Shown here: positions 3,290-24,995 of the stretch, piece by piece
How positions within the stretch are numbered: position 1 is the stretch's first letter
How the letters are laid out: each line of letters begins with the position of its first letter
Assembly (NCBI GenBank): GCA_900234795.1
Contig: LT962688.1
Coordinates: 60,001 to 92,000 of the forward strand
Length of the DNA: 32,000 nucleotides
Source of the DNA: Methylorubrum extorquens
GTDB taxonomy: Bacteria > Pseudomonadota > Alphaproteobacteria > Rhizobiales > Beijerinckiaceae
Direction: 5' to 3'
Translations under genes and position numbers: made by a program
Notes under the pieces: generated by a model
What the model was told of the DNA's origin: nothing
Database searches by the model: none
Seen by the model: the letters and a program-made list of their open reading frames with translations, nothing else

Positions 3290-3300
3290 AGGTGACCTCG

Positions 3301-4542: not shown

Positions 4543-4547
4543 TGAAA

Positions 4548-5011
4548 TTAGTTCCAAAGGCAGGCAGCAAGAATATTAGCCAGGTGTCGCGTGTCGTGTG
4601 CAGCTCTCGCCGACTTAATCGCCTGTGTCAGCCCCTCGCTACGCAGCGGAAACTGAACTGCGACGATCATCGGGATAGCCCTCATCTCGGCAGCGATCAG
4701 CAAGGGATGCTCGGCGCAATCGAAGGTGACGCTGGCATAGAGATTCGCGCCGATAAGCGCTTTCTCGCCCTCTTCGCCCGCGATGAGACGCACATCAGCC
4801 CCGGTGTCATATCCAAGGACAAGAGCCGCGACGGGTACGACTGGCGCTGTTGCCCTATGACGTCGATGGAGACCTCGCTAAGGCGGGGACCGCACAGGTG
4901 GAGCGACGAGATTAGGTGAAGCGCGCGTCCCTGCTCATCTTCGCGACCATCGATGACAAGACGCACGACCGGTGGGTTGTTATGGCCTTCGGGAGAAGCA
5001 GAAGTGCCCAT
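4548..5011 (-). pseudogene. hypothetical protein, apparently frameshifted (two overlapping ORF pieces)
   Basis: ORF 4697..5032 (…NPPVVRLVIDGREDEQGRALHLISSLHLCGPRLSEVSIDVIGQQRQ) and ORF 4548..4793 overlap. The frame of the latter is open further upstream (…APVVPVAALVLGYDTGADVRLIAGEEGEKALIGANLYASVTFDCAEHPLLIAAEMRAIPMIVAVQF…). Together they look like one ~150-aa gene offset by 1 nt around 4800-4830. The stop at 4548 lies 5 nt from the GT4 ATG, an operon-like spacing. No family recognised. Confidence 0.25.
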
Positions 5012-5399
5012 TTTCAATGCGCTAAGCCTCAATGTGTGCAGACAAACAGCCCGGCCGCTGCATTGTCACCAATGATTTACAGACTGACAACGTCACTGCA
5101 CCTCGTTGTCTCGTCCGAACCATCAAAGGAAAGGTCACGATGGCGCTACATAGCTCGTGCAAGCATCATGCGACAGTGAAGCTTGTCGAGCAGGTGGACC
5201 CTTACGCGATCTTTCCTCGCACGGAAAGCGGGCTGCGCTAACCGGGCGCCCAGGCCGTACCGCACTTAGCAAACCATTGCCGGCGGATGCGGGGCGACAG
5301 TAGGTTCACGTACGGGGGCGCTGGTGGGCTTAGAAGTCAACGGCTCCGGTCTGCGCATCGCTGCTTCACATCCGACCGCCACGAACTTTCAAACGCTAA

Positions 5400-5892
5400 G
5401 ACCGTCACCGGCGATCAGGTGACTGCCACCGTCGAGGTTTACCTCGCAGATCCTGAGGCGGGCGGGTCAACGACAAGCGGTTCGAGTGGATCTGTCGGCG
5501 GGAAGGCCTGAAAGCACCGGCCAGGCAATCCAAGCGTGGACGCATCCGGGACGGGGACGGCTCATGCCTGCGGCTACGGGCAGCCTCTCAACCATCATAG
5601 TCCCGGGGTTTCAGGGGATTAATGCCGCACGCAGATCAGCCGATCAGCCTCAACCCAATCAACGCCACTGTGCTTCTGAGCAGGCCATCCGCTGCACGTC
5701 TTGGCGGCGGATGCCGCCACAGCGAGGCGTAGGCCAATCCCGATGCTGGGCCGGTCGGATGGCTTCCCGCCATTGCCAGATGAAAAGCAGGAACAAAGAT
5801 CCTCACCCCAGTGTTTCGCCGCAACGAGACCATACATCTCGGCGAAATCAGTCGCTTATCGACCACCAGTCCATGAAGGTGCAATAAAATAA
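5400..5892 (+). mobile_element. degenerate IS3-family transposase (OrfB) relic
   Basis: 5466-5600 translates to VNDKRFEWICRREGLKAPARQSKRGRIRDGDGSCLRLRAASQPS*. This matches the conserved ...VNxKRVERIWRREGLKVPxKQPKRGRLWLNDGSCIRLR... stretch of IS3-family (IS407/IS2-like) OrfB as I remember it. The upstream ...TSQILRRAG is in another frame. A second piece ending ...ATRPYISAKSVAYRPPVHEGAIK* (stop 5890-5892) resembles the OrfB C-terminal ...RPHSSLGYRPPAPE motif. The DDE core is missing and stops and frameshifts are present. Confidence 0.6.
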
Positions 5893-5914
5893 CTTAAGTT
5901 ACGAAGCTCGATTT

Positions 5915-5944
5915 TTGAATATATTTGCACGTTTTCTGTAAGCA
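5915..5944 (+). promoter_or_regulatory. candidate sigma-70-type promoter in an AT-rich spacer upstream of the 12-gene operon
   Basis: TTGAAT (5915-5920), 18 nt, TAAGCA (5939-5944), inside the only strongly AT-rich stretch of this region (5880-5963). AGGAG at 5946-5950 precedes the ATG at 5964. Hexamer matches are modest. Confidence 0.2.
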
Positions 5945-5963
5945 CAGGAGTCGTCGCGCAAAT

Positions 5964-7076
5964 ATGAAGAAACTGGCTCTGATCACCGGTGGAGCAGGCT
6001 TTATAGGCCGGCATCTTGCGAGTGCGCTGCTGGCGCGGGGTTACCGAGTCCGCGTGCTCGATAGCCTGATCGAGCAGGTGCATGGCGGCACCGGCCAGCC
6101 CCTCTCTCTCGATCCGGGCGTGGAGTTCGTCGAGGGCGATGTCCGTGACGCCGAGGCGGTGGCGCGGGCGATTGCGGGTGCGACCCATGTCGTCCACCTG
6201 GCGGCGGAGGTCGGCGTCGGGCAGAGCATGTACGCGGTCGAACGCTACGTCTCGGTCAATGATTGTGGGACCGCGACCCTGTTTCAGGCGCTGATCGAGG
6301 CGCCGGTACAGCGCGTCGTCGTCGCTTCCTCCATGAGCATCTACGGCGAGGGCCTCTACCGGACGGAAGCCGATGCCACCGTTGAGGACGCCGTGCGCCC
6401 GCCGCGCCGCCCCGGCGAACCGTGGGATCCGCCCGATCAGCAGGGCCGCCCGATGCGCCCCGTGCCGACCCCAGAATCGAAGCGCCCGGCGCTCGCCTCG
6501 GTCTATGCGCTGACGAAGTACATGCAGGAACGCCTGACGCTCACGCTCGCCCCCGCCTACGGCATGGAGGGCGTGGCGCTCCGCCTTTGGAACGTCTACG
6601 GGCCGGGCCAGGCGCTCTCGAACCCGTATACCGGCGTGCTGGCGATCTTCGCGGCGCGCCTCCTCCACGGACAGCCGCCGATGATCTTCGAGGACGGCGA
6701 GCAGCGGCGCGATTTCGTACATGTCGAGGATGTGGCCCAGGCCTTCGTGCTGGCGCTGGAGCACCCGGCCGCCGCCGGGCAGGTCTACAATGTCGGCTCC
6801 GGCGAGGACCGCACCGTCAACGAGGTGGCGCGTCTGCTCGCCCGCGCCATGGGTCGCGAGGAGATCGCTCCGCAGATTACGGGGCAGGCGCGGGCCGGCG
6901 ACATCCGGCACTGCATCGCGGACATCGGCAAGATCACCCGCGAACTCGGCTACGCGCCAAAGCGCGACTTCGCCGAAGGATTAGCCGAACTCGCGGCATG
7001 GGTTGCCGAGCAGCAGGCGGTCGACCGCGTGGCCGAGGCAAGGCGCGAACTCGAAGCCCGAGGTCTCGTCGCGTGA
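5964..7076 (+). CDS. NAD-dependent epimerase/dehydratase (extended SDR, UDP-hexose 4-epimerase-like)
   Basis: MKKLALITGGAGFIGRHLASALLARGYRVRVLD (GxxGxxG Rossmann fold), a YALTK catalytic YxxxK, and a C-terminal substrate domain. AGGAG lies 13 nt upstream. The start was chosen over the track start 5925 because the Rossmann motif then sits at residues 8-16. Confidence 0.85.
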   Translation: MKKLALITGGAGFIGRHLASALLARGYRVRVLDSLIEQVHGGTGQPLSLDPGVEFVEGDVRDAEAVARAIAGATHVVHLAAEVGVGQSMYAVERYVSVNDCGTATLFQALIEAPVQRVVVASSMSIYGEGLYRTEADATVEDAVRPPRRPGEPWDPPDQQGRPMRPVPTPESKRPALASVYALTKYMQERLTLTLAPAYGMEGVALRLWNVYGPGQALSNPYTGVLAIFAARLLHGQPPMIFEDGEQRRDFVHVEDVAQAFVLALEHPAAAGQVYNVGSGEDRTVNEVARLLARAMGREEIAPQITGQARAGDIRHCIADIGKITRELGYAPKRDFAEGLAELAAWVAEQQAVDRVAEARRELEARGLVA

Positions 7077-8164
7077 GCGGGCCGGCCACGACCGCCACGC
7101 GCCCGGTCCTCGTCACGGGTGGTGCCGGCTTCGTCGGCGCCAACCTCGCCGACCAGCTCGCCGCCGAGGGGCAGACCGTCCTCGTCTACGATGCTCTGAC
7201 GCGTCCCGGCGTCGAGGCGAACCTGGCTTGGCTCACCGAGCGCCACGGCGCGCGGATCGTGCCGGTGATCGCCGACATCCGCGACGGTGCTGAGCTCGCC
7301 CTCGCGGTGCGGGAGGCCGGCGCGGTGTTCCACTTCGCCGCCCAAGTTGCTGTGACGACGAGCATGACCGCGCCTTGGGAGGACATGGAGGTCAATCTCG
7401 GCGGTACGTTGACCCTGCTGGAGGCCCTGCGCGCCCGCCGGGGTGCGGTCCCGTTGCTCTTCGCCTCGACCAACAAGGTCTATGGCGGCTTGCCCGACGT
7501 TGAGCTGGCGGTCGAGGGTGACGCCTACCGGCCGACCGATCCAAACTTGCGCGCCCATGGTGTCGGCGAGGATCGCCCGCTCGATTTTCACACCCCCTAC
7601 GGCTGCTCGAAGGGCGCGGCGGATGCCTACGTGCTCGACTACGCCCGCAGCTACGGCTTGCCGACCGTCGTGATGCGCATGAGCTGCATCTACGGACCCC
7701 GCCAGATGGGCAACGAGGACCAGGGCTGGGTCGCCCATTTCCTGATCCGCGCACTGACGAACCGAACCGTGACCCTCTACGGCGACGGGCGGCAGGTGCG
7801 CGACATCCTTCATGTCCGCGACGCGGTCGCGGCCTACCGAGCGGCGCTGGCGCGGATCGACCGGGTGGCCGGACGAGCGTTCAACCTCGGCGGCGGCCCG
7901 GACAACGCGGTGAGCCTGCGCGGGCTGATCGCCCATCTCGGCACGCTGCTCGGGCGCGAGGTCGGGATCGAAACCGGCGCGTGGCGGCCCGGCGACCAGC
8001 GCTACTACGTCTCCGACACGCGCCGCGCCGCATCGATGCTCGGGCTCGAACCCCCGCTACCCTGGCGCGAGGGTGTGGCCGACCTCGCCGCGTGGCTCAC
8101 GCAATGGCTCGCCGTAGAGGCCACGACGAACCGGGCCGCCCGTCAACCGGAGGCGGTGCTATGA
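7073..8164 (+). CDS. NAD-dependent sugar-nucleotide epimerase, CDP-paratose/tyvelose 2-epimerase-like extended SDR
   Basis: GTG at 7073 overlaps the upstream stop (GTGA). VLVTGGAGFVGANL, STNKVYG, YGCSKGAADAYVLDYARSYGLPTVVMRMSCIYGPRQMGNEDQGWVAHF closely follow the RfbE-type 2-epimerase pattern as I recall it. The 580-aa track ORF start (6422) overlaps the previous gene and is rejected. Confidence 0.85.
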   Translation: MSGPATTATRPVLVTGGAGFVGANLADQLAAEGQTVLVYDALTRPGVEANLAWLTERHGARIVPVIADIRDGAELALAVREAGAVFHFAAQVAVTTSMTAPWEDMEVNLGGTLTLLEALRARRGAVPLLFASTNKVYGGLPDVELAVEGDAYRPTDPNLRAHGVGEDRPLDFHTPYGCSKGAADAYVLDYARSYGLPTVVMRMSCIYGPRQMGNEDQGWVAHFLIRALTNRTVTLYGDGRQVRDILHVRDAVAAYRAALARIDRVAGRAFNLGGGPDNAVSLRGLIAHLGTLLGREVGIETGAWRPGDQRYYVSDTRRAASMLGLEPPLPWREGVADLAAWLTQWLAVEATTNRAARQPEAVL

Positions 8165-9456
8165 GGGTCGCCTTCGTCAATCCGCCCTGGGACTATCGCA
8201 ACAGCATCTATTTCGGCTGCCGCGAGCCCCATCTGCCGCTCGAACTCGGCTACGCCGCCGCTTTGCTGGAGGCGGGCGGCCACGAGACGCTGCTCGTCGA
8301 TTGCCATCTCGAAGGCCTGAGTACCGCGGAGGGCGCTGAGCGGATCGCGGCCTTCGCGCCCGCGATGACCGTGATCACCACGGCGCCCACCTACCTGTTC
8401 TGGCGCTGCGCCCCGCCGGAGATGCGGGTGCCGCGCGCCTTCCTCGAAGCGCTTCAAGGCCGCGGTGGGCGCACCGTCGCGGTCGGCCCACATGGCTCGG
8501 CCACGCCACGACCGACGCTGGAGAAACTCGGTTGCGACGTGGTCGTGCGGGGCGAGTGCGAGGCGATCGTGGCTCGTCTGGCCGAGACGGACGATCTGCG
8601 CAGCCTGCCCGCCCTCGCGTATCGCGATGCAGAGGACCGTGTCGTCGTCGCAGGGCCGCCCCATGCCGGGCGCTTCACCGACTTGCCGGCGCTTGCCTGG
8701 CCCGATGCCTGGATCGCCCGCCACCATCACCATCACCACCGCTTCGACACCGCGCCCGACGGGCCCGGCGCCGAGATCGAGGCCTCGCGCGGCTGCCCCT
8801 ATACTTGCAGCTTCTGCGCGAAGATCGATTTTCGCGATGCCTATCGTCGCCGCGACCTGCCGATCGTCCTTGAGGAGATCGACGGGCTGATCTCCCAGGG
8901 CGTCACCTACCTCTACTTCGTCGACGAGATCTTTCTGCCGCAGAAGCCGCTTCTGGAGGCCCTGGTCGGACGCCAAGTGAAGTTCGGGGTGCAGACCCGG
9001 ATCGATCTGTGGAAGCCCGATATGCTCGACCTGCTCGGGACGGCGGGCTGCGTTTCGATCGAGGCGGGCATCGAGAGTCTGACCGAGGAGGGACGCGCCG
9101 CACTCGACAAGCGCTGCCGCGCCTCGACCGACGACCTCGCCGAGCGCCTGATCCACGCCCGCCGCACCGTGCCATTCGTCCAGGCGAACCTGATCGCGGT
9201 GGCGGGCGACGATCCCGATCTCGTCGCCGCCTGGCGCGACCGGCTGCGCGGCGCGGGGGTCTGGGCGAACGATCCGGTGCCGCTCTACCCCTATCCCAGC
9301 TCACCCGATTACCGGCGGCTCTGGGGCGAGCCGGACGACGCGGCCTGGGAGCGGGCGCACGCCCATTATCTCAGTCAGTTCACCCGCTTCAGCGACATCC
9401 AGGAGGAGCGCCCGCTCCCGCTGCCCGAGTTGGAAGCGACCTGCGGATGCCGCTGA
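8161..9456 (+). CDS. B12-binding domain / radical SAM domain protein (class B radical SAM)
   Basis: ATGA overlap with the upstream gene. The N-terminal cobalamin-binding-like Rossmann region is VAFVNPPW...LGYAAALLEAGGHETLLVDCH...VITTAPTY...VAVGPHGS. The radical SAM cluster motif is EASRGCPYTCSFCAK (CxxxCxxC). Confidence 0.9.
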   Translation: MRVAFVNPPWDYRNSIYFGCREPHLPLELGYAAALLEAGGHETLLVDCHLEGLSTAEGAERIAAFAPAMTVITTAPTYLFWRCAPPEMRVPRAFLEALQGRGGRTVAVGPHGSATPRPTLEKLGCDVVVRGECEAIVARLAETDDLRSLPALAYRDAEDRVVVAGPPHAGRFTDLPALAWPDAWIARHHHHHHRFDTAPDGPGAEIEASRGCPYTCSFCAKIDFRDAYRRRDLPIVLEEIDGLISQGVTYLYFVDEIFLPQKPLLEALVGRQVKFGVQTRIDLWKPDMLDLLGTAGCVSIEAGIESLTEEGRAALDKRCRASTDDLAERLIHARRTVPFVQANLIAVAGDDPDLVAAWRDRLRGAGVWANDPVPLYPYPSSPDYRRLWGEPDDAAWERAHAHYLSQFTRFSDIQEERPLPLPELEATCGCR

Positions 9457-10553
9457 CTGCTGCCCGTCCCCACATCCTGATGAGCGCCGACGCGCTGGGC
9501 GGCGTCTGGCAATACACGCTCGACCTCGCCGCCGGCTTCACCCGCCGGGGCGCCTCCGTCAGCGTCGCCTTGATGGGACCGGCGCCTGCGCCCGAGCGGA
9601 TCGCGCGGGCGCAAGAGATCAGCGGCGCCCGCATTCTCACGACGAACCTGCCCCTCGATTGGACCGCCGAGAGTGCCGCAGAAGTTCGAGATGCATCGGA
9701 CGCGCTCGCCCGCCTCGCGGAGGAGACCGGCGCCGACCTCGTCCACCTGCATAGCTCGGCTCTGGCCCTCGCCGACTTCACCGCGCCGGTCGTGGCGGTC
9801 TGCCATTCCTGCGTTGCGACCTGGTGGGCCACTGTGGGGTCGGGCCCGCTGCCCGCGGATCTGGCGTGGCGGCGCTACCTCAACGCGCAGGGCTGCCGCA
9901 AAGCCGACCGGCTGATCGCCCCGACCCACGCCTTCGCCCGGACGACGCAGGCGGCCTACGGACTGGCGCTGGCGCCCCTCGTCGTGCGCAACGGCCGGAA
10001 TGTCCCCGTCTCGTCCGGGGCGGAACCCGCGTCCCACGTCTTCTCCGCCGGGCGCCTGTGGGACCTTGCCAAGAACGCCGCCGCGCTCGATCGGCTGGCC
10101 GCGCGCCTATCGGTGCCGGTTCGCGCCGCCGGCCCCGTGGCCGGGCCGACCGGCCAACGGGTGACGCTTACCGCCCTCGACTGCCTCGGCCGCCTCGACG
10201 ACGAGGAGATCGCGCGGGAGCTGAGCCTCCGGCCGGTCTTCGTGAGTCTTGCCCGCTACGAGCCTTTCGGCCTCGCGGTGCTGGAGGCAGCGGGCGCCGG
10301 TTGCGCCCTGGTGCTCTCCGACATCGAGAGTTTTCGCGAGTTGTGGGACGACGCAGCGCTGTTCGTCCCGTCCGACGACGATGCGGCGGCGGCCCGCGCC
10401 GTCCAAGGCCTCTTTGCCGACCCGGCCTGCCGCGCGGCGCTCGGCCGGGCCGCCCGCACCCGCGCCGCCGCCTATGGCACCGAGGCCATGGTTGCGGGCG
10501 TGGCCCGTATCGTCCGCGGCCTGCACCCGGCGCTCGACGAGGCGGCGGCATGA
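9447..10553 (+). CDS. glycosyltransferase family 4
   Basis: The ATG at 9447 overlaps the upstream gene by 10 nt. ILMSADALGGVWQYTLDLAAGF is the GT4 N-terminus, and FVSLARYEPFGLAVLEAAGAGCALVLSDIESFRELWDDAALFV is the E-x7-E region. Confidence 0.85.
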   Translation: MPLTAARPHILMSADALGGVWQYTLDLAAGFTRRGASVSVALMGPAPAPERIARAQEISGARILTTNLPLDWTAESAAEVRDASDALARLAEETGADLVHLHSSALALADFTAPVVAVCHSCVATWWATVGSGPLPADLAWRRYLNAQGCRKADRLIAPTHAFARTTQAAYGLALAPLVVRNGRNVPVSSGAEPASHVFSAGRLWDLAKNAAALDRLAARLSVPVRAAGPVAGPTGQRVTLTALDCLGRLDDEEIARELSLRPVFVSLARYEPFGLAVLEAAGAGCALVLSDIESFRELWDDAALFVPSDDDAAAARAVQGLFADPACRAALGRAARTRAAAYGTEAMVAGVARIVRGLHPALDEAAA

Positions 10554-11677
10554 GGATCGTCTACTTCACCCACTCCCTCGCCTCGTGCTGGAATCACGGC
10601 AACGCCCACTTCCTGCGCGGCGTGCTGCGCGAGTTGGCCGGCCTTGGCCATGCAATCGAGGCCTACGAGCCAGAGGGCGCCTGGAGCCGGGAGAACCTGC
10701 TTCGCGACCATGGCCCCGCCGGACTCGAGGCCTCGCTCGCGCCCTATCCTGAGCTGTCGCCGAAGACCTACGCCACGATCGAGGCGGCCGTGGAATACGT
10801 CGAGGGCGCCGACCTCGTCGTCGTCCACGAATGGAACGAGCCGGCTCTGGTCGCTGCGCTCGGTCGGGCCCGGAAGGGCGGCCGCATCGACACGCTTCTG
10901 TTCCACGATACCCATCACCGCGCGGTGAGCGCGCCTGACGCGATGCGCCGTTTCGACCTCTCGGGCTACGACGGCATCCTCGCCTTCGGCGAGACGCTGG
11001 CCGAGGTCTATCGCAGCTGGGGCTGGGGCGCGCGCGCCTACGTCTGGCACGAGGCCGCCGATACGCGCCTGTTCCGGCCACCGGCGGAGACGGAGGCGCC
11101 GCGGGCCGGTCTCGTCTGGATCGGTAACTGGGGCGACGGCGAGCGCACGCAGGAACTTGAGACGTTCCTGTTCCGTCCAGCACAGGCCGCCGGCCTCTCC
11201 CTCGACATCCACGGCGTGCGCTACCCCGCCGAGGCGCTCGCGACGCTCGAACGCTACGGCGCCCGCTATCACGGCTGGGCCCCGAACGCCGCCGCGCCCA
11301 TCCTGTTCGCCCGTGCGCTGGCGACGGTTCACGTGCCGCGCCGCTTCTATGTCGAGGCCTTACCCGGCATCCCGACGATCCGGGTGTTCGAGGCCCTCGC
11401 CTGCGGCCTGCCGCTGGCCTGCGCCCCTTGGAACGATGCCGAAGGGCTGTTCACGCCGGGCTCGGACTACCTGATCGCCCGCGACGGAGAGCAGATGGAG
11501 GCCCACCTGCTGGCGCTGCGCGAGGATGCGAGCCTGCGCCGGTCGCTCGCCGCCCATGGCCTCGCCACGATCCGAGCCCGGCACACCTGCCGGCACCGCG
11601 CCGATGAACTCCTCGCGATCCATGACTCCTTGACCACGTCCTTGAACGTGCCTGCCCGGATGGAGGCCGCCCCGTGA
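10550..11677 (+). CDS. CgeB-like glycosyltransferase (Glyco_trans_1_2/DUF3880-type), paralogue 1 of 3
   Basis: ATGA overlap. The N-terminus is MRIVYFTHSLASCWNHGNAHFLRGVLRELAGLGHAIEAYEP and the C-terminus is ...PTIRVFEALACGLPLACAPWNDAEGLFTPGSDYLIARDGEQM. Both signatures recur in the next two genes. Confidence 0.75.
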   Translation: MRIVYFTHSLASCWNHGNAHFLRGVLRELAGLGHAIEAYEPEGAWSRENLLRDHGPAGLEASLAPYPELSPKTYATIEAAVEYVEGADLVVVHEWNEPALVAALGRARKGGRIDTLLFHDTHHRAVSAPDAMRRFDLSGYDGILAFGETLAEVYRSWGWGARAYVWHEAADTRLFRPPAETEAPRAGLVWIGNWGDGERTQELETFLFRPAQAAGLSLDIHGVRYPAEALATLERYGARYHGWAPNAAAPILFARALATVHVPRRFYVEALPGIPTIRVFEALACGLPLACAPWNDAEGLFTPGSDYLIARDGEQMEAHLLALREDASLRRSLAAHGLATIRARHTCRHRADELLAIHDSLTTSLNVPARMEAAP

Positions 11678-12780
11678 AAATCGCGTTCTACGGCTCCTCC
11701 CTGCTCTCGTCCTACTGGAACGGGGCGGCAACCTATTACCGGGGCATGCTCGCCGACCTCGCAAGGCGCGGCCACCGCATCTCCTTCTACGAGCCGGACG
11801 CCTTCGACCGGCAGAGCCACCGCGACATCGACCCGCCGGACTGGGCCGAAGTACAGGTCTATCCCGCGACCATCGAGGCCGTCCGCGCGGTGATCGCGCA
11901 AGCTGCGGAAGCCGACGTCGTCGTCAAGGCAAGCGGCGTCGGCGTGTTCGACGACGAATTGCTGGAAGGCGTCGTCGCCGCCGCGCGTCCGGACGCCATC
12001 CGCATCTTCTGGGATGTCGACGCGCCCGCGACGCTGGCCGAGATGCGGGCCAACCCGGACCACGCCCTCCACCGGGCGATGCTCGCTCTCGACTTCGTGC
12101 TGACCTATGGCGGCGGCCCGCCGGTGATCGCGGCCTATGAGGGATTCGGAGCGCGTGCCTGCATCCCGGTTTACAACGCGCTGGATTCCGAGACTCACCA
12201 TCCAGTCCCGCCTGATCCGCGCTTCTCGGCCGACCTCGCCTTTCTCGGCAACCGGCTGCCGGACCGTGAGGCGCGGGTCGAGCGCTTCTTCCTCGCGGCC
12301 GCCGCGCGCCTGCCGGAGCGGAGCTTTCTACTCGGCGGCAGCGGCTGGGAAAGCCGCGGGCTTCCGCTTAACGTCCGCCATCTCGGCCACGTCTCGACGC
12401 GCGACCACAATGCCTTCAACGTCAGCCCCCGCGCCGTTCTCAACATCGCCCGCGACAGCATGGCGGCGGTCGGCTTCTCGCCCGCCACCCGCGTGTTCGA
12501 GGCGGCGGGCGCGGGTGCCTGCCTCATCACCGACGCCTGGGAAGGCCTCGGCCTGTTCCTCAAGGAGGGCGAGGAGGTGCTCGTCGCCCGCGACGGGCGC
12601 GACGTCGCCGACCACGTCGCCGCGCTGACGCCGGAGCGCGCCCGCGCCATCGGCGAGGCCGCCCGCCTGCGGATCGCCGCCGAGCACACCTACGCGCGCC
12701 GCGGTGCGCAGGTCGACGCGATTCTCCGGGACGAAAGGGAGCGCCGGGCCTGCGGGGTGCTTCGCCGGAGCGTCGCATGA
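11674..12780 (+). CDS. CgeB-like glycosyltransferase, paralogue 2 of 3
   Basis: GTGA overlap. MKIAFYGSSLLSSYWNGAATYYRGMLADLARRGHRISFYEPD ... SPATRVFEAAGAGACLITDAWEGLGLFLKEGEEVLVARDG. Confidence 0.75.
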   Translation: MKIAFYGSSLLSSYWNGAATYYRGMLADLARRGHRISFYEPDAFDRQSHRDIDPPDWAEVQVYPATIEAVRAVIAQAAEADVVVKASGVGVFDDELLEGVVAAARPDAIRIFWDVDAPATLAEMRANPDHALHRAMLALDFVLTYGGGPPVIAAYEGFGARACIPVYNALDSETHHPVPPDPRFSADLAFLGNRLPDREARVERFFLAAAARLPERSFLLGGSGWESRGLPLNVRHLGHVSTRDHNAFNVSPRAVLNIARDSMAAVGFSPATRVFEAAGAGACLITDAWEGLGLFLKEGEEVLVARDGRDVADHVAALTPERARAIGEAARLRIAAEHTYARRGAQVDAILRDERERRACGVLRRSVA

Positions 12781-13892
12781 CGAGCGCGCCGCTGCGCCTC
12801 GTGGTGCTGGGTCTGAGCCTGTCCTCGTCATGGGGCAACGGCCACGCCACCACCTACCGCGCCCTGCTTCGGGCCTTCGCGGCCCGCGGCCACGATGTCC
12901 TGTTCCTGGAGCGCGACGTGCCCTGGTACGCGGCCCACCGCGACCTCACCGATCCGGACTTCTGCAGACTGGCCCTCTACGCCGACCTCGACGACCTCGA
13001 GGACCACCGCGCAGCGATCGAACAGGCGGATGCCGTCGTCGTCGGCTCCTACGTGCCCGATGGGATCGCGGTGGGTCGCCGCGTCCTCGCCTGGGCGGAG
13101 GGCACCCGCGCCTTCTACGACATCGATACGCCGGTGACGCTGGCGAACCTCGCCGCCGGCACCTGCGCCTATCTCGAAGCCAATCAGATCGAAGCTTACG
13201 ACCTCTATCTCTCCTTCACCGGCGGCCCGACCCTGGAGCGACTGGAGGAGCGCTACGGCTCGCCCGCGGCGCGTGCTCTCTACTGCTCGGTGGATCCGGA
13301 GGCCTATCCGCCGTTTGCAGGAGAAAAAGCCTATGATCTGAGCTATCTCGGCACCTACAGCCCCGACCGGCAACCGATCCTGGAGCAACTGCTGATCGAA
13401 CCGGCCCGCCGCGCGCCCGACCTGCGCTTCGCGGTCACCGGCCCGCAATACCCGGACGGGATCGACTGGCCGGCCAACGTGACCCGCAGCGATCACCTGC
13501 CGCCGGAATCCCATCCGGCCTTCTACGGGCAGAGCCGCTACACCCTGAACGTCACCCGCGCCGACATGACCGCGGCGGGCTACAGCCCGAGCGTGCGCCT
13601 ATTCGAGGCCGCCGCCTGCGCCATCCCGATCCTGAGCGACCGCTGGGACGGCCTCGACACGATCCTCGCGCCTGGCCGCGAGATCCTGTGCCCCGAGGGG
13701 CCGGACGCCGTGCTGGCGATCCTGCGCGACTGGCCTGAACCCGAGCGCCGCCGGATCGGCGAGGCGGGCCGTGCCGCGATCCTCGCCCGGCATTCCGCCG
13801 CCCACCGCGCCGCAGAATTCGAAACGCACCTGCGCGAAGCAGCCGCCCGGCTGGCATTCCTCCGAACGCCGCCTCGAACGGTCACCAACTGA
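12777..13892 (+). CDS. CgeB-like glycosyltransferase, paralogue 3 of 3
   Basis: ATGA overlap. LRLVVLGLSLSSSWGNGHATTYRALLRAFAARGHDVLFLERD ... SPSVRLFEAAACAIPILSDRWDGLDTILAPGREIL. Confidence 0.75.
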   Translation: MTSAPLRLVVLGLSLSSSWGNGHATTYRALLRAFAARGHDVLFLERDVPWYAAHRDLTDPDFCRLALYADLDDLEDHRAAIEQADAVVVGSYVPDGIAVGRRVLAWAEGTRAFYDIDTPVTLANLAAGTCAYLEANQIEAYDLYLSFTGGPTLERLEERYGSPAARALYCSVDPEAYPPFAGEKAYDLSYLGTYSPDRQPILEQLLIEPARRAPDLRFAVTGPQYPDGIDWPANVTRSDHLPPESHPAFYGQSRYTLNVTRADMTAAGYSPSVRLFEAAACAIPILSDRWDGLDTILAPGREILCPEGPDAVLAILRDWPEPERRRIGEAGRAAILARHSAAHRAAEFETHLREAAARLAFLRTPPRTVTN

Positions 13893-13903
13893 GGGCAACA
13901 GCG

Positions 13904-14943
13904 ATGGACAGACAGGCTGAATGGGTGCTCGTCGCTGGTGGGGCCGGCTTCATCGGCTCGCATCTCGTCGATGCTCTGCTGGCGCGGGGCGCACGCGTCG
14001 TCGCCCTCGATAGCCTGCTCACTGGCCGCCGCGACAACCTTGCCCATCTCAGCCGCGAGCCGCGTTTCGAGTTCGTCGAGGCAGACATCACGGAGCCGCT
14101 GCCGCGGCTGCCGCGCTTCGAACGGGTATTCAATCTCGCCTGCGCGGCCTCACCCCCGCACTATCAGGCCGATCCGATCCACACGATGCTGACGAGCGTC
14201 GTCGGAACCCTGCGTCTGCTGGAGCGGGCGCGCAACGAGGGGGCGCGCTTCCTCCAGGCCTCGACCAGCGAGGTCTACGGCGACCCGCTCGTGCATCCGC
14301 AGCCGGAAGCCTATTGGGGCAACGTCAATCCGACCGGCCCGCGCGCCTGCTACGACGAGGGAAAGCGCGCCGCCGAGACGCTGGCCTTCGATTTCGAGCG
14401 GGGCCAGGGGCTGGAAGTCCGGGTCGCGCGCATCTTCAACACCTACGGACCCCGGATGCGGGCCGATGACGGGCGCGTCGTCTCGAACGTGATCTGTCAG
14501 GCGCTCGCCGACGCGCCCGTCACCGTCTACGGCGACGGCGAGCAGACCCGCTCGTTCTGCTACGTCACCGACCTCGTCGAGGGGCTGATGCGGCTCATGG
14601 CGTGCGAGGCCGCGCCGGGCGGCCCGGTCAATCTCGGTAACCCGCGCGAAATGACGGTGGCCGAACTCGTCAGCCTGGTCGCGGAGATGACCGGTACGCG
14701 CTCGCCCGTGGTGCGCCGCCCGCTTCCCGTGGACGACCCGCAGCGTCGCCGCCCGGACATCGCCCGCGCGCAGGCGCTGCTCGGCTGGTCGCCGAAGGTG
14801 GCGCTGGAACAGGGCCTTGAGGCGACAATCGCGTGGTTTGCCGGCGAGATCCGCGCGCCCGAGCAACCCGTCGTGAAGCCCCGATCCATCGGTGGACGCC
14901 ACCTTCGCCCGGTCGAGGCCGCCCTTGCGCGGCAGGCCCCGTG

Positions 14944-14944
<1 letters not shown>
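13904..14944 (+). CDS. UDP-glucuronate decarboxylase (UDP-xylose synthase)
   Basis: [58 protein letters not shown] and [10 protein letters not shown] are hallmark UXS/ArnA-decarboxylase motifs. GAGGG lies 8 nt upstream. This is the only junction in the operon with a spacer (11 nt). Confidence 0.9.
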
Positions 14945-16037
<1,093 letters not shown>

Positions 16038-16041
<4 letters not shown>

Positions 16042-16823
16042 GGCGGGTCTTTCTCGTGCGCCATGCGAGCCACGACCGGCTCGGGAAGGTGCTGTGCGGG
16101 CGAATGCCCGACGTTTCGTTGAGTGCGCAGGGTCGGGCTGAAGCGGAGGCGATGGCGACCGCGCTCGTGCGACGGCTCGCTCCCGACCTCCACACATCGT
16201 CAGCCGAGCAGGATCGCGCGCCTCTCCTCTCCCTCGCGGGGAGGTGGGAGGAGCCGGAGGTGGCTCAGGACGAGGCGCCCCGGTACCCACTGCCCGCCCC
16301 TGACTCGCCGGGAGGAGGGGAGCGCACGCGTCTCGCCCCGGTGATCGGTGGGGAACGAACACCCCGAAGCGGCATCCGAGTCCTCTCGAGCCCACAGACC
16401 CGCAGCCGGGAAACCGCCGCGCCGCTGGCACAGAAGCTCGGCGCCGCGATCGAGACCGCCGACGAGATCGACGAGATCGAGTTCGGCGCCTGGACCGGTC
16501 GCGCCTTTGCCGAGTTCGCCTCCGATCCCGCTTGGGTCGCCTGGAACGCGGAACGCACCACCGCCCGCCCGCCGGGCGGCGAGAGCATGGGCGAGGTGCA
16601 GGCGCGCGCCCTTCGCCTGCTCGACCGCCTCGGCCGCGAGGAGGCCCCGCCCGCGATCCTCGTGAGCCACGCCGACACGATCCGCGCCGCCTTGCTCGGC
16701 GTGTTGGGGCTCAGCCTCGACGCCTATGACCGCCTCGTCGTCGCCCCGGCCTCGTGGAGCGAGCTCGCGCTCTGGCCCGGCGGCGGCCGGGTGGTCTCGA
16801 TCAACGAGCGGGTGAGCCCATGA
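16038..16823 (+). CDS. histidine phosphatase family protein (phosphoglycerate-mutase-like) with an internal insertion
   Basis: ATGA overlap. VFLVRHASH (RHG-type catalytic motif), [15 protein letters not shown], and a C-terminal [13 protein letters not shown] (second catalytic His). At 261 aa it is ~60 aa longer than usual because of the segment at 16188-16373. Confidence 0.8.
16188..16373 (+). other. about 186-nt in-frame insertion inside the histidine phosphatase gene (low-complexity, repeat-like)
   Basis: It separates the RH(A/G) motif (aa 8-10) from the SSPxxRxxxTA motif (aa 117-127). The usual distance is about 40-50 aa. It encodes [62 protein letters not shown]. It contains pyrimidine/purine mirror tracts (cctctcctctccctcgcggggaggtgggaggag at 16221-16253, ccgggaggagggga at 16308-16321). 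Third-position GC is visibly lower than in flanking codons. Confidence 0.4.
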
Positions 16824-17608
16824 CGCGTCTTGCGACGGATGCCCCCAGTTCCGAGGCATTACGCCGGGAGGCCGACGCCCTCGGGCCCTGGTTCCACAAC
16901 ATCGACCTCGGCGGGGTCTGGACTGCGCCCGATCACTTCCTCGGCGATTATCCAGGGTTGAAGTGGCGTCGGTTCGCGTCCGCGCTTCCCGCCGACCTCA
17001 CCGGCAAGTCCGTGCTCGATATTGGCTGCAACGGCGGCTTCTATTCTATCGAGATGAAACGTCGCGGTGCGTCCCGGGTGCTCGGCCTCGATTCCGACGA
17101 GCGCTACCTCGCGCAGGCCCGCTTCGCGGCTGACCACCTTGGCCACGACATCGAGTTCCGCAACCTCTCGGTCTACGATGTTGGGGCTCTGGCCGAGCGC
17201 TTCGACGTGGTTCTCTTCATGGGGGTGCTCTACCACCTGCGCCACCCGCTGCTGGCCCTCGACCTGATCCACGAGCACGTGGCCGGTGATCTCCTGGTGT
17301 TCCAGTCGATGCTGCGCGGATCGTCTCAGGTCGAGCCGGTGGCGGACGATTACGACTTCTGGGACATGGATCAGTTCGAGCGGCCCGGTTACCCGCGGCT
17401 GCACTTCGTCGAGCATTCCTACGCCCATGACTGGACGAACTGGTGGATCCCCAACCGCGCGGGAATGGAGGCGATGCTGCGCGCGAGCGGCTTCACGATC
17501 GAGAGCCGGCCGGAGGCGGAGGTTTATCTCTGTCGGCGGGCGCCCGCACCGGCTGGGGCAGAAGCCGTCTATCCGGCACGCGGGATCAACGGGAGGGAGG
17601 GCCGATGA
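16820..17608 (+). CDS. CmoB-like class I methyltransferase (Methyltransf_9/DUF1698 type)
   Basis: ATGA overlap. GPWFHNIDLGG, VLDIGCNGGFYSIEM (SAM motif I), FDVVLFMGVLYHLRHPLLAL and WWIPNRAGMEAMLRASGF parallel the CmoB signature blocks as I recall them. Confidence 0.85.
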   Translation: MTRLATDAPSSEALRREADALGPWFHNIDLGGVWTAPDHFLGDYPGLKWRRFASALPADLTGKSVLDIGCNGGFYSIEMKRRGASRVLGLDSDERYLAQARFAADHLGHDIEFRNLSVYDVGALAERFDVVLFMGVLYHLRHPLLALDLIHEHVAGDLLVFQSMLRGSSQVEPVADDYDFWDMDQFERPGYPRLHFVEHSYAHDWTNWWIPNRAGMEAMLRASGFTIESRPEAEVYLCRRAPAPAGAEAVYPARGINGREGR

Positions 17609-18543
17609 TCGAAGCGGTCATGCTCTGGAACGAGCCCAATAATAAGTCTCACTGGGATCCGGAGATCGACCCCGACTGGTTTCTGTTCGGCGAGATGGTG
17701 AAGCAGGCCTCCCGCGCGATCCGTGCGGAGGCACCGGACCTGCCCCAGGTGCTCGGCGGCATCTCGCCGATCGATCCGGTGTTCATGCAGCACATGCAGG
17801 CCCGAGGGGTGCTTGATGGGCTCGATGCGGTGGCCGTGCATGGCTTCCCCCTCGACTGGAACCTGTGGCCGATTCACGACTGGCCCCAGAAGATCGCCGA
17901 GATCCGCGCGGTGACTCACCTACCGGTCTGGGTCTCGGAGGTCGGCGTGTCGAGTTTTGGTGCCGAGGAGGTCCAGGCCTGGGGCTGCCGCCGCACCGCG
18001 GAGCTGCTGCGGGGGCAGGCCCCGCGCATCCACTGGTACAGCCTCTACGACCTGCCGCGGGAATGGGAGGCCACCACCCGCCACCGCGAGGCGGAGGGCT
18101 CCTCCTATTACCGCCACTTCCACATGGGCTTGCTGCGCCAGGACGGCACGCCGAAGCTCGCGCTGGAGGAATTCGCCCGCTGCACCCCGGATTTTGGGCT
18201 GTGCCAATGGTTCCACTACCAGGATCATCGCTTGGACGAAGCGGTAGCCTGGATGAAGCGCCTCGGCGTCACCTACCTGCGCACCGGCCTGTCCTGGGCC
18301 GACAGCTTCCGCCCCGACGCCCTCGACTGGTTCGACCGGCAGATGACGGCTCTGCAGGACTTTAAAGTGACGGTGACCTTCTGCTTCACGCCCGAGCACC
18401 GCGGCATCGCCGCCCACCACACCAGCCCGCCGCTGGTTCGAGAAGAGTTCGCGGAGTTTTGCGCCGCGATGGTGCGTCGATACGCGGATCGCCAGCCTGT
18501 CCAGGTCGAAGCCTTGCCGATACCGGAGATGCCGTTTCTATAG
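17605..18543 (+). CDS. clan GH-A-like glycoside hydrolase (annotated-type: beta-xylosidase/GH39- or GH5-like), segment order apparently permuted
   Basis: ATGA overlap. LWNEPNN at aa 8-14 (acid/base NEP motif), AVHGFP, VWVSEVG at aa 109-114 (nucleophile Glu ~102 aa after NEP), IHWYSLYD and MGLLRQDGTPKLA (a typical barrel end). This is followed by LGVTYLRTGLSWAD...KVTVTFCFTPEH...EEFAEFCAAMVRRY, which looks like strands 1-3. Confidence 0.65.
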   Translation: MIEAVMLWNEPNNKSHWDPEIDPDWFLFGEMVKQASRAIRAEAPDLPQVLGGISPIDPVFMQHMQARGVLDGLDAVAVHGFPLDWNLWPIHDWPQKIAEIRAVTHLPVWVSEVGVSSFGAEEVQAWGCRRTAELLRGQAPRIHWYSLYDLPREWEATTRHREAEGSSYYRHFHMGLLRQDGTPKLALEEFARCTPDFGLCQWFHYQDHRLDEAVAWMKRLGVTYLRTGLSWADSFRPDALDWFDRQMTALQDFKVTVTFCFTPEHRGIAAHHTSPPLVREEFAEFCAAMVRRYADRQPVQVEALPIPEMPFL

Positions 18544-18842: not shown

Positions 18843-20357
18843 TCAGCCGATGGGCCTACCCGCACCGTTGAGTACCCGCTTGAGTGTCGAGCGTGCCGCG
18901 TCGATGGCGACGGTGGCAGCACTCAAGGTCCGCGGTTCGGTTGGCTTGTTCAGGGCGTGGCGTGCGATACTGGCCGCGAGATCATCCACCTCGCCTGCCA
19001 TCGCCTCCAGACGCTCGCGGTCGGTTTCGCGGCGGGCTTCGGAGCGCAGTTCCAGCAGGCGTGCGGTCGCGACCTCGATCCGTTCGCGGCGCTGGCGCCC
19101 GATGCGTTGCCGAAGCCAAGCTGCTGTGGAGCCCAAGCCGCCGCCAAGGATGGCCACGAGGTAGATCCAGCTCTCGTAGCGTTCGATCAACGTCTCCTGC
19201 TCGCGCTCGTAGTAGTCGAGGGCGCCCGGATGAATGGGCAGGCGGGCGCTGGTCGCGTCGGCCGTGTCCTCGTAATCCGGGTGGCTGACGTCCTCCGCGG
19301 CGGGGACCGTCTCCGCCAGCGCCGCGCGCATCTCGAACAGGTGCTGCGTCACCTCCGCGGCCACGCTCCGCGACAGGTTGGCCCGCGCCATCAGGCGGTA
19401 GGACGTGCCTACGGTCGCGACGTCCTCGGCCGGCAGGCGGGGATTGCCGCCGTACAAGGCGGCCGGCACCGTCACCGGCTGCAGGCGGGGCCGCCGCGCC
19501 AGCACCGCTGCGGTATCGGGCAAACCGATCAGCGCGACGTCACCGCCATCGCTCGCCTCGCCCACCAGGGCGACCACCCGCCGCGCGGCCGGAGAGCCGG
19601 GCGTCGTCACGAGAGCCATGGCGTCGATGCGCCCGTCGCGGAGCGCCGTTGTGACATCGGCCTCCTCAATCGGGACCAGCACCACCGCGGTGGTGTTCAC
19701 GGCCCCGGCCGGAGCGTCGGTCAGGAGTTCGAACCCGTAATGGCCGACGAGGTCGTGGAGCAGCGTCCGGTCGGCAGTCCGGCTCGCGAGCATACCCAGC
19801 CGTTTGCCAGCCAGATCCGGGATGTCCTTGATGCCGGAGGCTCCTGGCGCGGCGACGAAGGCGGCGAGCGTCCGCAGGACCGCCAAGGTCAGGCCGTTGC
19901 CCGGCATCGCCACGTCCGGCCGAACCACCGCGAGGTCGGCCTTGCCGGCCTTCAACGCCTCTGCGCTCTCGCGCACCCCGGCGAAGGATATGACCTTCAG
20001 CCGGATGCCGAGGTTCCGCCGGGCGAGCTCGTCGGCGTAGGCGCGCAGCAGTGCCGGTTCGGTGCCGCCGTTGGGGGCGACCGCGATGGTCAGGGTCGTG
20101 GGACGCGTGAGATGGAACGCCGCGACGGCTCCGAGCACGAGCAGAAGCGCCAAGCCCAGGGGGAGAAACACCTCGCGAACACTCGAAAGCCCCAACCGAC
20201 GCACGCCCGCCCCTCGCTTGCTCTGGGCTGGTTCGGCCCTGCTGCCCAGGTGGGCGACGCGCCGCCGGTTTTCGAGGGGATCGGCCTGCCCGCCAGGCGG
20301 AATCCTAACGAAACGCTTATGGGATCGGCTCCGCGACCCGCTCGAACCCTTACGCAT
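18843..20357 (-). CDS. TAXI-family TRAP-type solute-binding protein homologue with N-terminal TM, extra C-terminal TM and cytoplasmic coiled-coil tail
   Basis: LTIAVAPNGGTEPALLRAYADEL...KAGKADLAVVRPDVA...LPIHPGALDYYRE-type ending (IHPGALDYYEREQ) is characteristic of TAXI/NMT1-like receptors. It is followed by WIYLVAILGGGLGSTAAWL (TM) and an Arg/Glu-rich helical tail. The start is uncertain: ATG 20357 was chosen and the track start is 20462. Confidence 0.7.
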   Translation of the reverse strand: MRKGSSGSRSRSHKRFVRIPPGGQADPLENRRRVAHLGSRAEPAQSKRGAGVRRLGLSSVREVFLPLGLALLLVLGAVAAFHLTRPTTLTIAVAPNGGTEPALLRAYADELARRNLGIRLKVISFAGVRESAEALKAGKADLAVVRPDVAMPGNGLTLAVLRTLAAFVAAPGASGIKDIPDLAGKRLGMLASRTADRTLLHDLVGHYGFELLTDAPAGAVNTTAVVLVPIEEADVTTALRDGRIDAMALVTTPGSPAARRVVALVGEASDGGDVALIGLPDTAAVLARRPRLQPVTVPAALYGGNPRLPAEDVATVGTSYRLMARANLSRSVAAEVTQHLFEMRAALAETVPAAEDVSHPDYEDTADATSARLPIHPGALDYYEREQETLIERYESWIYLVAILGGGLGSTAAWLRQRIGRQRRERIEVATARLLELRSEARRETDRERLEAMAGEVDDLAASIARHALNKPTEPRTLSAATVAIDAARSTLKRVLNGAGRPIG

Positions 20358-20413
20358 CCTGGTACAGCTTGAGAGCGCGGTCCCGTGAGGACCGCGTGAA
20401 CCCCAGACATACG

Positions 20414-20895: not shown

Positions 20896-21638
<743 letters not shown>

Positions 21639-21642
<4 letters not shown>

Positions 21643-24356: not shown

Positions 24357-24366
24357 GGTTTGCTCT

Positions 24367-24972: not shown

Positions 24973-24995
24973 GGGAGGTCTCCGGGACCTGTCGT

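Follow-up and report, generated by a model that had tools for sequence, protein, structure and literature searches.

The rhizo-twelve cassette of Methylorubrum extorquens: predicted enzymes, stress regulation and a possible inositol-anchored glycan

Mycobacteria form cytoplasmic methylated glycans through the methylglucose lipopolysaccharide (MGLP) and methylmannose polysaccharide (MMP) pathways, which combine soluble glycosyltransferases, one or more methyltransferases dependent on S-adenosylmethionine (SAM) and a dedicated hydrolase. In the MGLP pathway an enzyme of the histidine phosphatase type, GpgP, dephosphorylates the primer, and the MMP pathway comprises ManT, methyltransferases and the hydrolase MmpH. 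Another described route, the entry to mycothiol and the phosphatidylinositol mannosides (PIM), joins Ino1 with MshA or PimA. A further system, named rhizo-twelve, stands in public annotation as the gene neighbourhood of two protein families, TIGR04295 (B12-binding/radical SAM) and TIGR04290 (methyltransferase). Here we describe a twelve-gene operon (g1 to g12) in a 32,000-nucleotide stretch of the Methylorubrum extorquens genome (assembly GCA_900234795.1, contig LT962688.1, positions 60,001 to 92,000 of the forward strand), referred to below as the window, and compare it with these systems.

By family profiles, gene content and gene order, the locus is the M. extorquens copy of the rhizo-twelve cassette, and every defining feature tested was present. 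Both marker proteins score above the curated cutoffs of their families (g3 with TIGR04295, 724 bits against a cutoff of 400, over profile positions 1-422 of 422; g11 with TIGR04290, 383.4 bits against 300), and content and order agree with those of loci in Methylobacterium, Azospirillum, Bradyrhizobium, Mesorhizobium, Inquilinus and others. Homologues of g3 carry the JGI label 'B12-binding domain/radical SAM domain protein of rhizo-twelve system'. Because its existence, name and distribution stand in public annotation, the cassette is already known; our additions are a link to a stress regulon, EcfG promoters in other genera, the lack of conserved export genes and a permuted hydrolase. An original prediction, made from the sequence of the window, had pointed to TIGRFAM families for a methyltransferase and a B12/radical SAM protein from such a neighbourhood, and these families are real. 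It had also known of no characterised metabolite, and a literature search on rhizo-twelve, both TIGRFAMs and the locus tags found no paper on the product.

The likeness to the mycobacterial methylglucose pathways that had been drawn at the same time holds as an analogy in enzyme logic and does not extend to homologous core enzymes, since none of the twelve proteins has an NCBIfam or Pfam match of the GpgS/GT81, ManT or MmpH kind. The MGLP primer is glucosylglycerate, whereas inositol is proposed for the cassette, which also has a class B radical SAM protein, three short-chain dehydrogenase/reductase (SDR) proteins and a UDP-xylose synthase that the MGLP and MMP pathways lack; its hosts are Alphaproteobacteria rather than Actinobacteria. 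The mycothiol and PIM entry is approached by g9, for which the actinobacterial Ino1 model TIGR03450 is closest, and by the presence of a GT4 glycosyltransferase gene (g4) in the same operon, with PimA among the few matches of g4 in the Protein Data Bank (PDB), limited to the nucleotide-sugar-binding domain. In contrast to that entry, g9 scores under the equivalog cutoff and g4 matches no MshA model, and the twelve proteins include no homologue of MshB, MshC or MshD and no phosphatidylinositol synthase. The operon and its adjoining genes likewise lack the features tested for surface-polysaccharide loci of the Wzx/Wzy-, ABC- or synthase-dependent types.

Layout and conservation of the cassette

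The operon consists of twelve intact genes on the forward strand at positions 5964-18543 (Table 1), with gene starts set by the conserved N-terminal motif of each family and junctions read straight from the window sequence. Ten of the eleven junctions overlap, eight by 4 nucleotides (ATGA or GTGA), g3/g4 by 10 and g8/g9 by 1 (TGATG). The sole non-overlapping junction, g7/g8, has an 11-nucleotide spacer, TGAGGGCAACAGCGATG, with a GAGGG motif whose first two bases are shared with the stop codon before it. Gene calls and junctions match the layout originally predicted exactly. The orthologues in strain AM1 run from META1_0137 (g12) to META1_0148 (g1), and eleven of the twelve have annotated lengths equal to those in the window. 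The exception is g1, for which the AM1 annotation (1023 nt) starts later; we prefer the start at 5964 because it keeps the NAD-binding motif GGAGFIG, which the AM1 start would cut off. The g12 protein is 100% identical to M. extorquens proteins. Scans of the operon for sigma-70 promoters and terminators gave site numbers not above those in shuffled sequence.

The cassette is widespread. Of 600 pattern matches listed from species-representative genomes, at least 571 code for a protein related to g3, and g3 orthologues share about 60-89% identity. Layout was counted by tblastn of the twelve proteins against the best 80 of these (at least 571) loci, which come from Methylobacterium/Methylorubrum, Azospirillum, Inquilinus, Belnapia, Falsiroseomonas, Mesorhizobium, Chthonobacter, Lichenihabitans and many metagenome-assembled genomes. 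The gene set recurs in 80 of 80, and g1-g7 are complete and colinear in 53, the remainder being mostly truncated contigs; the proposed check for co-occurrence and conserved neighbourhood across genomes therefore came out in favour of a real unit, with the same set in many genera. Genes g9-g12 lie downstream in Methylobacterium and Mesorhizobium, whereas in Azospirillum, Belnapia and others they sit 5' of g1 as an operon read divergently, and g9 and g10 are neighbours in almost every locus in which both were detected. Since g8 follows g7 in 36 of the 63 loci containing g7, it is a variable member, so that the UDP-xylose synthase of the original prediction stands as to identity and not as a fixed component. 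Hosts are largely plant- and soil-associated, Azospirillum brasilense and Bradyrhizobium ORS278 and ORS285 among them. The versions in Bradyrhizobium, Afipia, Falsiroseomonas and Belnapia add a fourth PF13524 glycosyltransferase, a nucleotidyltransferase and a phosphopentomutase; the latter two point to a pentose donor.

Some loci show further features. A family of ~584 residues with no Pfam match adjoins the cassette, either by g12 or just 5' of g1, in about 12 loci (in our numbering L023, L029, L043, L047, L048, L052, L055, L059, L068, L073, L077, L082 and L089) from Azospirillum, Inquilinus, Mesorhizobium and Caulobacteraceae; it is absent from the window and may be an accessory enzyme of the pathway. 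Only g1-g5 were detected within 10 kb downstream of g3 in the Methylobacterium aquaticum group (L015, L016, L019, L020 and L021), which suggests a possible interruption or rearrangement, whereas g1-g8 are present in the related M. isbiliense (L022). An M. extorquens-like locus from Logan assembly ERR1103851 (L087) has an integrase-type gene (Arm-DNA-bind_3) ~1 kb 5' of the methyltransferase gene and no phosphatase gene listed between the two, which hints at truncation or rearrangement.

Predicted enzymes

Matches to NCBIfam, Pfam and the PDB returned the enzyme families originally predicted, that of g12 through a profile match to PslG described below. Among the profiles then expected, PF04055, PF08003, PF01658, PF13524, PF00300, PF01370 and PF00534 were recovered; PF07994 was not reported and PF02310 fell just short of its threshold. 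Protein g9 is a myo-inositol-3-phosphate synthase (PF01658, 120 bits with a gathering score of 27). Its match to TIGR03450 (520 bits, profile positions 1-353 of 355) lies under the mycothiol-type equivalog cutoff of 638 bits, and we therefore assign the synthase activity without filing g9 as that equivalog. Its neighbour g10 is a branch 1 histidine phosphatase (PF00300, 132.6 bits; top NCBIfam matches TIGR03848 and CobC). The Pfam match of g10 falls in two stretches because of an insert of ~60 residues after the RHxxH motif, a low-complexity segment rich in proline, glycine and glutamate; the orthologues in Bradyrhizobium, Afipia and Falsiroseomonas lack this insert and have 198-201 residues (198 in ORS285) compared with 261 in the window.

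Three proteins are related to nucleotide-sugar enzymes. The first, g1, is an extended SDR resembling NDP-sugar 4-epimerases (PF01370, 192 bits), with an insert of ~45 residues and best PDB matches to UDP-hexose 4-epimerases, each in two stretches. The second, g2, is an SDR similar to CDP-tyvelose 2-epimerase (245 bits to 9RL0 and 242 bits to 1ORR; PF01370/PF16363), and g8 is a UDP-glucuronate decarboxylase, or UDP-xylose synthase (354 bits, E 1e-104, to human UXS1, 4GLL). The marker methyltransferase g11 is SAM-dependent and also matches PF08003; its nearest structures are ToxA, CmoB, the sugar O-methyltransferase EvdMO1 and WbdD.

Four genes encode glycosyltransferases. The g4 protein belongs to the GT4 family of fold GT-B (PF13439, PF13579 and PF00534). 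At E<=1e-5 its NCBIfam matches are EpsE (43 bits), an MSMEG_0565-type family, glgA_Coryne and GlcN-PG synthase, all far under their cutoffs, and its PDB matches, the SPS-like Tll1590 and PimA, cover the C-terminal donor domain only. The suggestion that this enzyme acts like MshA or the GpgS-type synthases is not borne out by these weak and generic matches. The remaining three, g5, g6 and g7, match PF13524 (CgeB-like) only, with 114.7, 131.6 and 129.1 bits, and a PDB sequence search with g6 gave no meaningful match. From their sequences they appear to be ancient paralogues: g5 is 27% identical to both g6 and g7 over the full length, g6 and g7 share 34%, and g7 is 44% identical to the extra fourth PF13524 paralogue of Bradyrhizobium-type cassettes. 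Mutual identity of 27-34% combined with conservation of each across genera (orthologues 53-86% identical overall, 59-86% for g6) argues for distinct, non-redundant and individually selected roles.

The radical SAM protein g3 has a Pfam match to PF04055 (40 bits) and one to PF02310 (31.0 bits) just under the gathering score of 32.1. Its AlphaFold2 (AF2) model (pLDDT 82.8, pTM 0.86), compared by Foldseek over both domains, is closest to TsrM, OxsB, AprD4, MgmA and CysS, with query-normalised TM-scores of 0.61-0.69, and g3 has the two-domain architecture of these class B enzymes. Judged from the model, which has an N-terminal Rossmann/B12-type domain along with the cluster motif in the sequence, g3 is a member of class B, the cobalamin-type radical SAM enzymes. 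Identity to any solved member is at most 19%, and a histidine run before the cluster motif (HxHHHH) is a feature of the TIGR04295 family's own. Both the CxxxCxxC motif and the histidine run are invariant across 24 aligned TIGR04295 sequences of 60-86% identity, and the run lies ~20 residues N-terminal of the cluster motif in all 24. It may be a metal- or cofactor-binding feature; we know of no such run in other class B radical SAM enzymes.

Profile comparison places BchE, HpnR, PhpK and AprD4 about equally distant from g3, with BchE as the second-best NCBIfam match and AprD4 as the sole solved structure recovered by sequence search. AprD4 is a cobalamin-independent dehydratase. As it has the same fold, the fold alone does not decide whether g3 uses cobalamin. 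An attempt to separate methylase from dehydratase by profile and fold failed, with TsrM, OxsB, AprD4 and MgmA all alike, and on the model g3 could be a methylase, a diol dehydratase or a rearrangement enzyme. The gene is always directly linked to the SDR genes g1 and g2, a linkage that fits either C-methylation of a sugar or dehydration followed by reduction of the AprD4/AprD3 kind.

The last protein, g12, has no Pfam or NCBIfam match, and NCBI annotation names its orthologues 'beta-xylosidase'. All 35 motif-matched homologues start M/V-I-E-A-x3-WNEPNN and therefore begin at the strand 4 motif of clan GH-A, which carries the acid/base glutamate. A family profile built from 25 members found PslG, a GH39 endo-glycosidase of the Pseudomonas aeruginosa Psl operon, as the best solved relative in the PDB (E 8e-7), in swapped order: residues 3-184 align with PslG 132-319 and residues 200-295 with PslG 25-130. 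The first segment holds both the NEP motif and the nucleophile motif (VSEVG, compared with STEWG in PslG), and the two glutamates are invariant in the 25 sequences. The AF2 model is an eight-unit beta/alpha barrel (pLDDT 75, pTM 0.80) for which Foldseek returned generic TIM barrels only (TM-scores 0.3-0.5), as expected since Foldseek aligns sequentially and the barrel is permuted; the sequence profile is the informative result. On profile and model, g12 is thus best described as a circularly permuted, PslG/GH39-like glycosidase of clan GH-A with an apparently intact catalytic pair and no signal peptide, which bears out the GH-A-like hydrolase originally proposed for the last gene. It shares with PslG the WNEPN acid/base motif and the downstream nucleophile glutamate. 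It differs from PslG in having strands 4-8 before strands 1-3, in being ~100 residues shorter, and in lacking a signal peptide, the C-terminal beta-sandwich and a Pfam model; neither the canonical strand order beta1-beta8 nor a match to a curated glycoside hydrolase model was found in g12.

Stress regulation, export genes and flanking DNA

The sigma factor EcfG belongs to the general stress response of Alphaproteobacteria. Published arrays set wild-type AM1 against ecfG mutants in cultures given ethanol (Francez-Charlot et al. 2016, PMC4814048, S2 Table). All twelve cassette genes were lower in the ecfG1 ecfG2 double mutant (-1.37 to -2.9-fold) and in the sextuple ecfG mutant (-1.46 to -3.1-fold), and the flanking genes META1_0135 (+1.3 to +1.4) and META1_0149 (+1.1) did not follow (PMC4814048). 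The main text of that paper has no META1_01xx locus tag (PMC4814048). The arrays support the cassette as one co-regulated unit and agree with the earlier suggestion that expression be sought under stress. The prediction of one transcript with stoichiometric expression gains support in its first part, in that the twelve genes are co-regulated and the flanks are not; stoichiometry does not follow from overlapping junctions, and g4 and g5 respond less than the others.

Of 130 regions from other genera, 13 had a strict EcfG motif (GGAAC-N16-17-CGTT) within 300 nt 5' of g1 or g9, where first-order Markov resampling predicts 0.33. The regions belong to Bradyrhizobium ORS285 and Bradyrhizobium sp. 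195, Inquilinus, Chthonobacter, Pleomorphomonas, M. frigidaeris and several metagenome-assembled genomes; the five antisense matches are accounted for by divergent intergenic regions that are shared. An imperfect palindrome upstream of the operon, AGGAACAAAGATCCTC, recurs as the same 16-mer at a similar distance 5' of g1 in eight Methylorubrum/Methylobacterium sequences (the window, L001, L002, L004, L006, L008, L009 and L014) within unconserved flanking sequence, and from this pattern looks like an operator for some regulator. Palindromes related to a second one, AATAACTTAAGTTACG, were found by eye 60-90 nt 5' of g1 in L005, L007, L008, L009, L013 and L014.

The predicted products are soluble. 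Kyte-Doolittle maxima over 19 residues range from 0.96 to 1.72 across the twelve proteins, with peaks in Rossmann-type core strands, and hydropathy showed no segment resembling a membrane span or an N-terminal signal, in agreement with the original prediction that hydrophobic segments are lacking. That prediction had also noted the absence of export and lipid-carrier genes, and the twelve genes indeed include no Wzx, Wzy or ABC exporter, polyprenyl-phosphate transferase or CDP-alcohol transferase. The same absence extends to the neighbourhood: when open reading frames (ORFs) of 120 residues or more around 84 loci were clustered, with shadow ORFs overlapping cassette genes removed, no transporter, flippase, polymerase or phosphoglycosyltransferase family recurred, and four further loci surveyed by Pfam families (ORS285, Inquilinus, Falsiroseomonas and Afipia) had no conserved transporter or lipid-carrier family. 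Judged on the operon and its adjoining genes only, these results support a self-contained soluble pathway. Neighbours in the four further loci are otherwise unrelated, with DUF4142, DUF1003 and an Nramp transporter occurring occasionally; DUF4142 (L083 and L089) and DUF1003 (L082, L090 and five further loci) recur beside the cassette in unrelated genera.

The window itself changes in composition at the operon, with 70% G+C from about 6 kb onward and 58% before. The low-GC island at positions 1-5900 carries minus-strand glycosyltransferase genes (Table 1) and has no blastn match in the loci of sister species; M. segetis (L014) likewise has low-GC DNA 5' of g1. These features make the 5' flank of the cassette look like a site of variable insertion. 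RNA genes were rejected as the cause of the low G+C in the first 6 kb, for lack of any Rfam or tRNA match there; the region is a strain-specific island with glycosyltransferase genes. Its GT2-like gene (762-3289) is apparently split by a frameshift and is either a pseudogene or the result of a sequencing error. Downstream of the operon, a convergent series of genes at 18843-29051 comprises a solute-binding protein gene and a complete kdpEDCBA set, followed by a cytochrome b561-like gene, a catalase-related gene and an anti-sigma-factor-like gene. These downstream genes are not conserved beside the cassette in other genera.

Table 1. Positions of the cassette genes, sequence motifs and neighbouring features in the window.
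Feature	Position	Strand	Length	AM1 orthologue	Remarks
GT2-like ORF	762-3029	-			other frame; begins at Pfam position 74 of the GT2 domain
GT2-like ORF, N-terminal part	3080-3289	-			includes VVVDDGS; same GT2 domain
GT1/GT4-like gene	3301-4557	-
Interval of ~1.4 kb	4560-5960				no convincing gene
Palindrome AGGAACAAAGATCCTC	5789-5804	.			imperfect; ~175 nt 5' of g1; candidate operator
Near-match EcfG promoter	5790-5815	+			GGAAC-N17-TGTT (consensus -10 CGTT); imperfect
Palindrome AATAACTTAAGTTACG	5888-5903	.			TTAAC-N3-5-GTTAA type; AT-rich leader; read by eye
Shine-Dalgarno AGGAG	5946-5950	+			13 nt 5' of g1 ATG; AT-rich leader; read directly
g1	5964-7076	+	370 aa	META1_0148
g2	7073-8164	+	363 aa	META1_0147
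g3	8161-9456	+	431 aa	META1_0146
His run in g3	8722-8739	+			RHxHHHHRF (HxHHHH); H188, H190-193 invariant
CxxxCxxC in g3	8794-8817	+			C212, C216, C219 invariant
g4	9447-10553	+	368 aa	META1_0145
g5	10550-11677	+	375 aa	META1_0144
g6	11674-12780	+	368 aa	META1_0143
g7	12777-13892	+	371 aa	META1_0142
g8	13904-14944	+	346 aa	META1_0141
g9	14944-16041	+	365 aa	META1_0140
g10	16038-16823	+	261 aa	META1_0139
g11	16820-17608	+	262 aa	META1_0138
g12	17605-18543	+	312 aa	META1_0137
g12 acid/base Glu10	17632-17634	+			WNEPN; predicted role
g12 nucleophile Glu112	17938-17940	+			VSEVG; predicted role
TAXI/NMT1-like solute-binding protein gene	18843-20462	-
kdpE	20896-21642	-			name from translation
kdpD	21639-24395	-			name from translation
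kdpC	about 24400-24990	-			name from translation
kdpB	24996-27086	-			name from translation
kdpA	27336-29051	-			name from translation
Cytochrome b561-like gene	29648-30214				name from translation
Catalase-related gene	30211-31482				name from translation
Anti-sigma-factor-like gene					follows the catalase-related gene; name from translation

A possible product and its alternatives

We tentatively propose, with a probability somewhat short of even, that the product is a cytoplasmic, inositol-anchored, methylated hetero-oligosaccharide or short polymer with a stress-protective role, made by a twelve-enzyme operon that is partly EcfG-dependent. In this scheme g9 would convert glucose-6-phosphate to inositol-3-phosphate, and g10 would dephosphorylate it before or after the first glycosylation. 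The donors, epimerised NDP-hexose and UDP-xylose, would come from g1, g2 and, where present, g8. The glycosyltransferases g4 and g5-g7 would each add a different residue, building the inositol-anchored chain in the cytoplasm; g11 would O-methylate it, and g3 would carry out a radical step on a sugar or on inositol, either C-methylation or an AprD4-like dehydration followed by SDR reduction. Trimming, sizing or recycling of the product would fall to g12. Such a glycan could serve as an intracellular protectant or store that aids tolerance of solvent, salt or desiccation stress. The family identities of g9 and g10 and their near-constant adjacency are firm; we infer the steps themselves and all substrates from the genes, and the order originally suggested, glycosylation of Ins-1-P followed by dephosphorylation, is likewise conjectural.

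Several points weigh against this proposal. The pathway, its substrates and its metabolite are all predictions from gene content. The chemistry of g3 may be of several kinds, with BchE, HpnR, AprD4 and TsrM about equally distant from it. The GT4 protein g4 has no specific relation to MshA, which uses inositol phosphate, and a protein or a lipid could just as well be the acceptor for four to five glycosyltransferases. On the regulatory side, only META1_0140 (g9) passes the array authors' threshold of at least 2-fold with p<0.005, the other genes having p values of 0.005-0.2, and the smallest responses, about -1.5-fold, are those of g4 and g5 (PMC4814048). The region upstream of the operon in the window has no canonical GGAAC-N16-17-CGTT, and sister species keep the GGAAC box with no match at -10, so that dependence on EcfG is possibly indirect; the tie to the general stress response is modest and may be indirect. 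Finally, surface-polysaccharide loci too typically contain PslG-like hydrolases, UDP-xylose synthase and NDP-sugar epimerases, and export could be encoded at an unlinked site.

The last point leads to the main rival, an unlikely one that nevertheless carries weight, in which the cassette builds or decorates lipopolysaccharide, capsule or exopolysaccharide and the genes for priming, flipping and export lie elsewhere in the genome. In its favour, PslG, the closest relative of g12 with a solved structure, comes from an exopolysaccharide operon, surface-glycan loci regularly contain UDP-xylose synthase and NDP-sugar epimerases, and PF13524 takes its name from the spore-surface protein CgeB. The genomic setting can be read in the same direction, given that the cassette abuts an island with two more glycosyltransferase genes in the window and lies near mdoGH in Azospirillum argentinense Az39; that island, however, is absent even in sister species. 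Within the loci examined, no gene for an initiating phosphoglycosyltransferase, Wzx/Wzy, ABC-2, OPX/PCP or a synthase was found in the cassette or conserved beside it. The g12 protein has no signal peptide, unlike the periplasmic PslG, and surface glycans seldom involve an inositol-phosphate synthase paired with a phosphatase.

A secreted or signalling small molecule, namely a cyclitol-based pseudo-oligosaccharide of the kind made by aminoglycoside-type pathways, is improbable. A cyclitol synthase together with glycosyltransferases, a class B radical SAM protein and a methyltransferase does recall aminoglycoside logic, the aminoglycoside enzyme AprD4 is both the sole solved sequence match of g3 and among its best fold matches, and many hosts are plant-associated. 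The cassette nevertheless has no aminotransferase, inositol dehydrogenase, resistance gene or transporter, its regulation is tied to the general stress response, and the conservation of g3 at about 60-89% identity in hundreds of species gives it the look of core physiology rather than of a patchy secondary-metabolite cluster.

We regard as equally improbable a simple inositol osmolyte, be it inositol itself, its methylated form or an inositol carrying one glycosyl residue, akin to plant ononitol, pinitol or galactinol, for which the glycosyltransferases would be redundant. The synthase-phosphatase pair and a methyltransferase would be enough for methyl-inositol, and stress regulation fits. Against such a compound, the mutual divergence of g5-g7, set beside their conservation between genera, implies distinct selected functions, and the presence of an endo-type glycosidase whose catalytic residues are intact implies that the substrate is an oligomer or a polymer.

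The weakest alternative is bradyrhizose or a related bicyclic, inositol-fused sugar. Bradyrhizose has an inositol-like ring and forms the O-antigen of photosynthetic Bradyrhizobium, and its genes are not known (PMC4743980). Four photosynthetic strains (ORS285, ORS278, ORS375 and STM3809) carry the cassette, and the second-best NCBIfam match of g3, BchE, is a ring-forming cyclase. To our knowledge, bradyrhizose has been reported from photosynthetic Bradyrhizobium only. The ORS285 cassette has 15 genes, with deposited names that include CDP-paratose 2-epimerase, UDP-glucose 4-epimerase, sugar-nucleotide epimerase/dehydratase and putative transglycosidase, and in gene number and annotation names it does not match the 'gdh' cluster of Busset et al. 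2016. With these mismatches, and with a distribution that is far broader and takes in many non-photosynthetic Bradyrhizobium, Azospirillum, Methylobacterium and Mesorhizobium, the two clusters are probably different and the identity is very improbable.

Returning to the proposed inositol-anchored glycan, a bolder and more doubtful form of it is that the cassette makes an undescribed class of intracellular glycan: inositol-primed, containing xylose or another pentose, O-methylated and modified by a radical SAM enzyme, a proteobacterial counterpart of the mycobacterial polymethylated polysaccharides that acts as an effector of the EcfG stress response. If this were true, TIGR04295 would represent a new cobalamin/radical SAM reaction on carbohydrate, g12 would found a permuted GH-A family, and the glycan would help these bacteria, on leaves and roots, to withstand desiccation, solvent or salt.

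Among the unassigned carbohydrate pathways of plant- and soil-associated Alphaproteobacteria, the cassette ranks with the more widespread. Model organisms open to genetic work are among its hosts, for example M. extorquens AM1, Azospirillum brasilense and the Bradyrhizobium strains ORS278 and ORS285. Because the array data name conditions under which to look, the question of its product is tractable in a model organism. Once identified, the product would explain why these bacteria retain an actinobacterial-type inositol-phosphate synthase, and an orphan cobalamin/radical SAM family and a permuted glycosidase family would each gain a chemistry. The same finding would give the EcfG general stress response, most of whose targets are functionally uncharacterised, a concrete effector.

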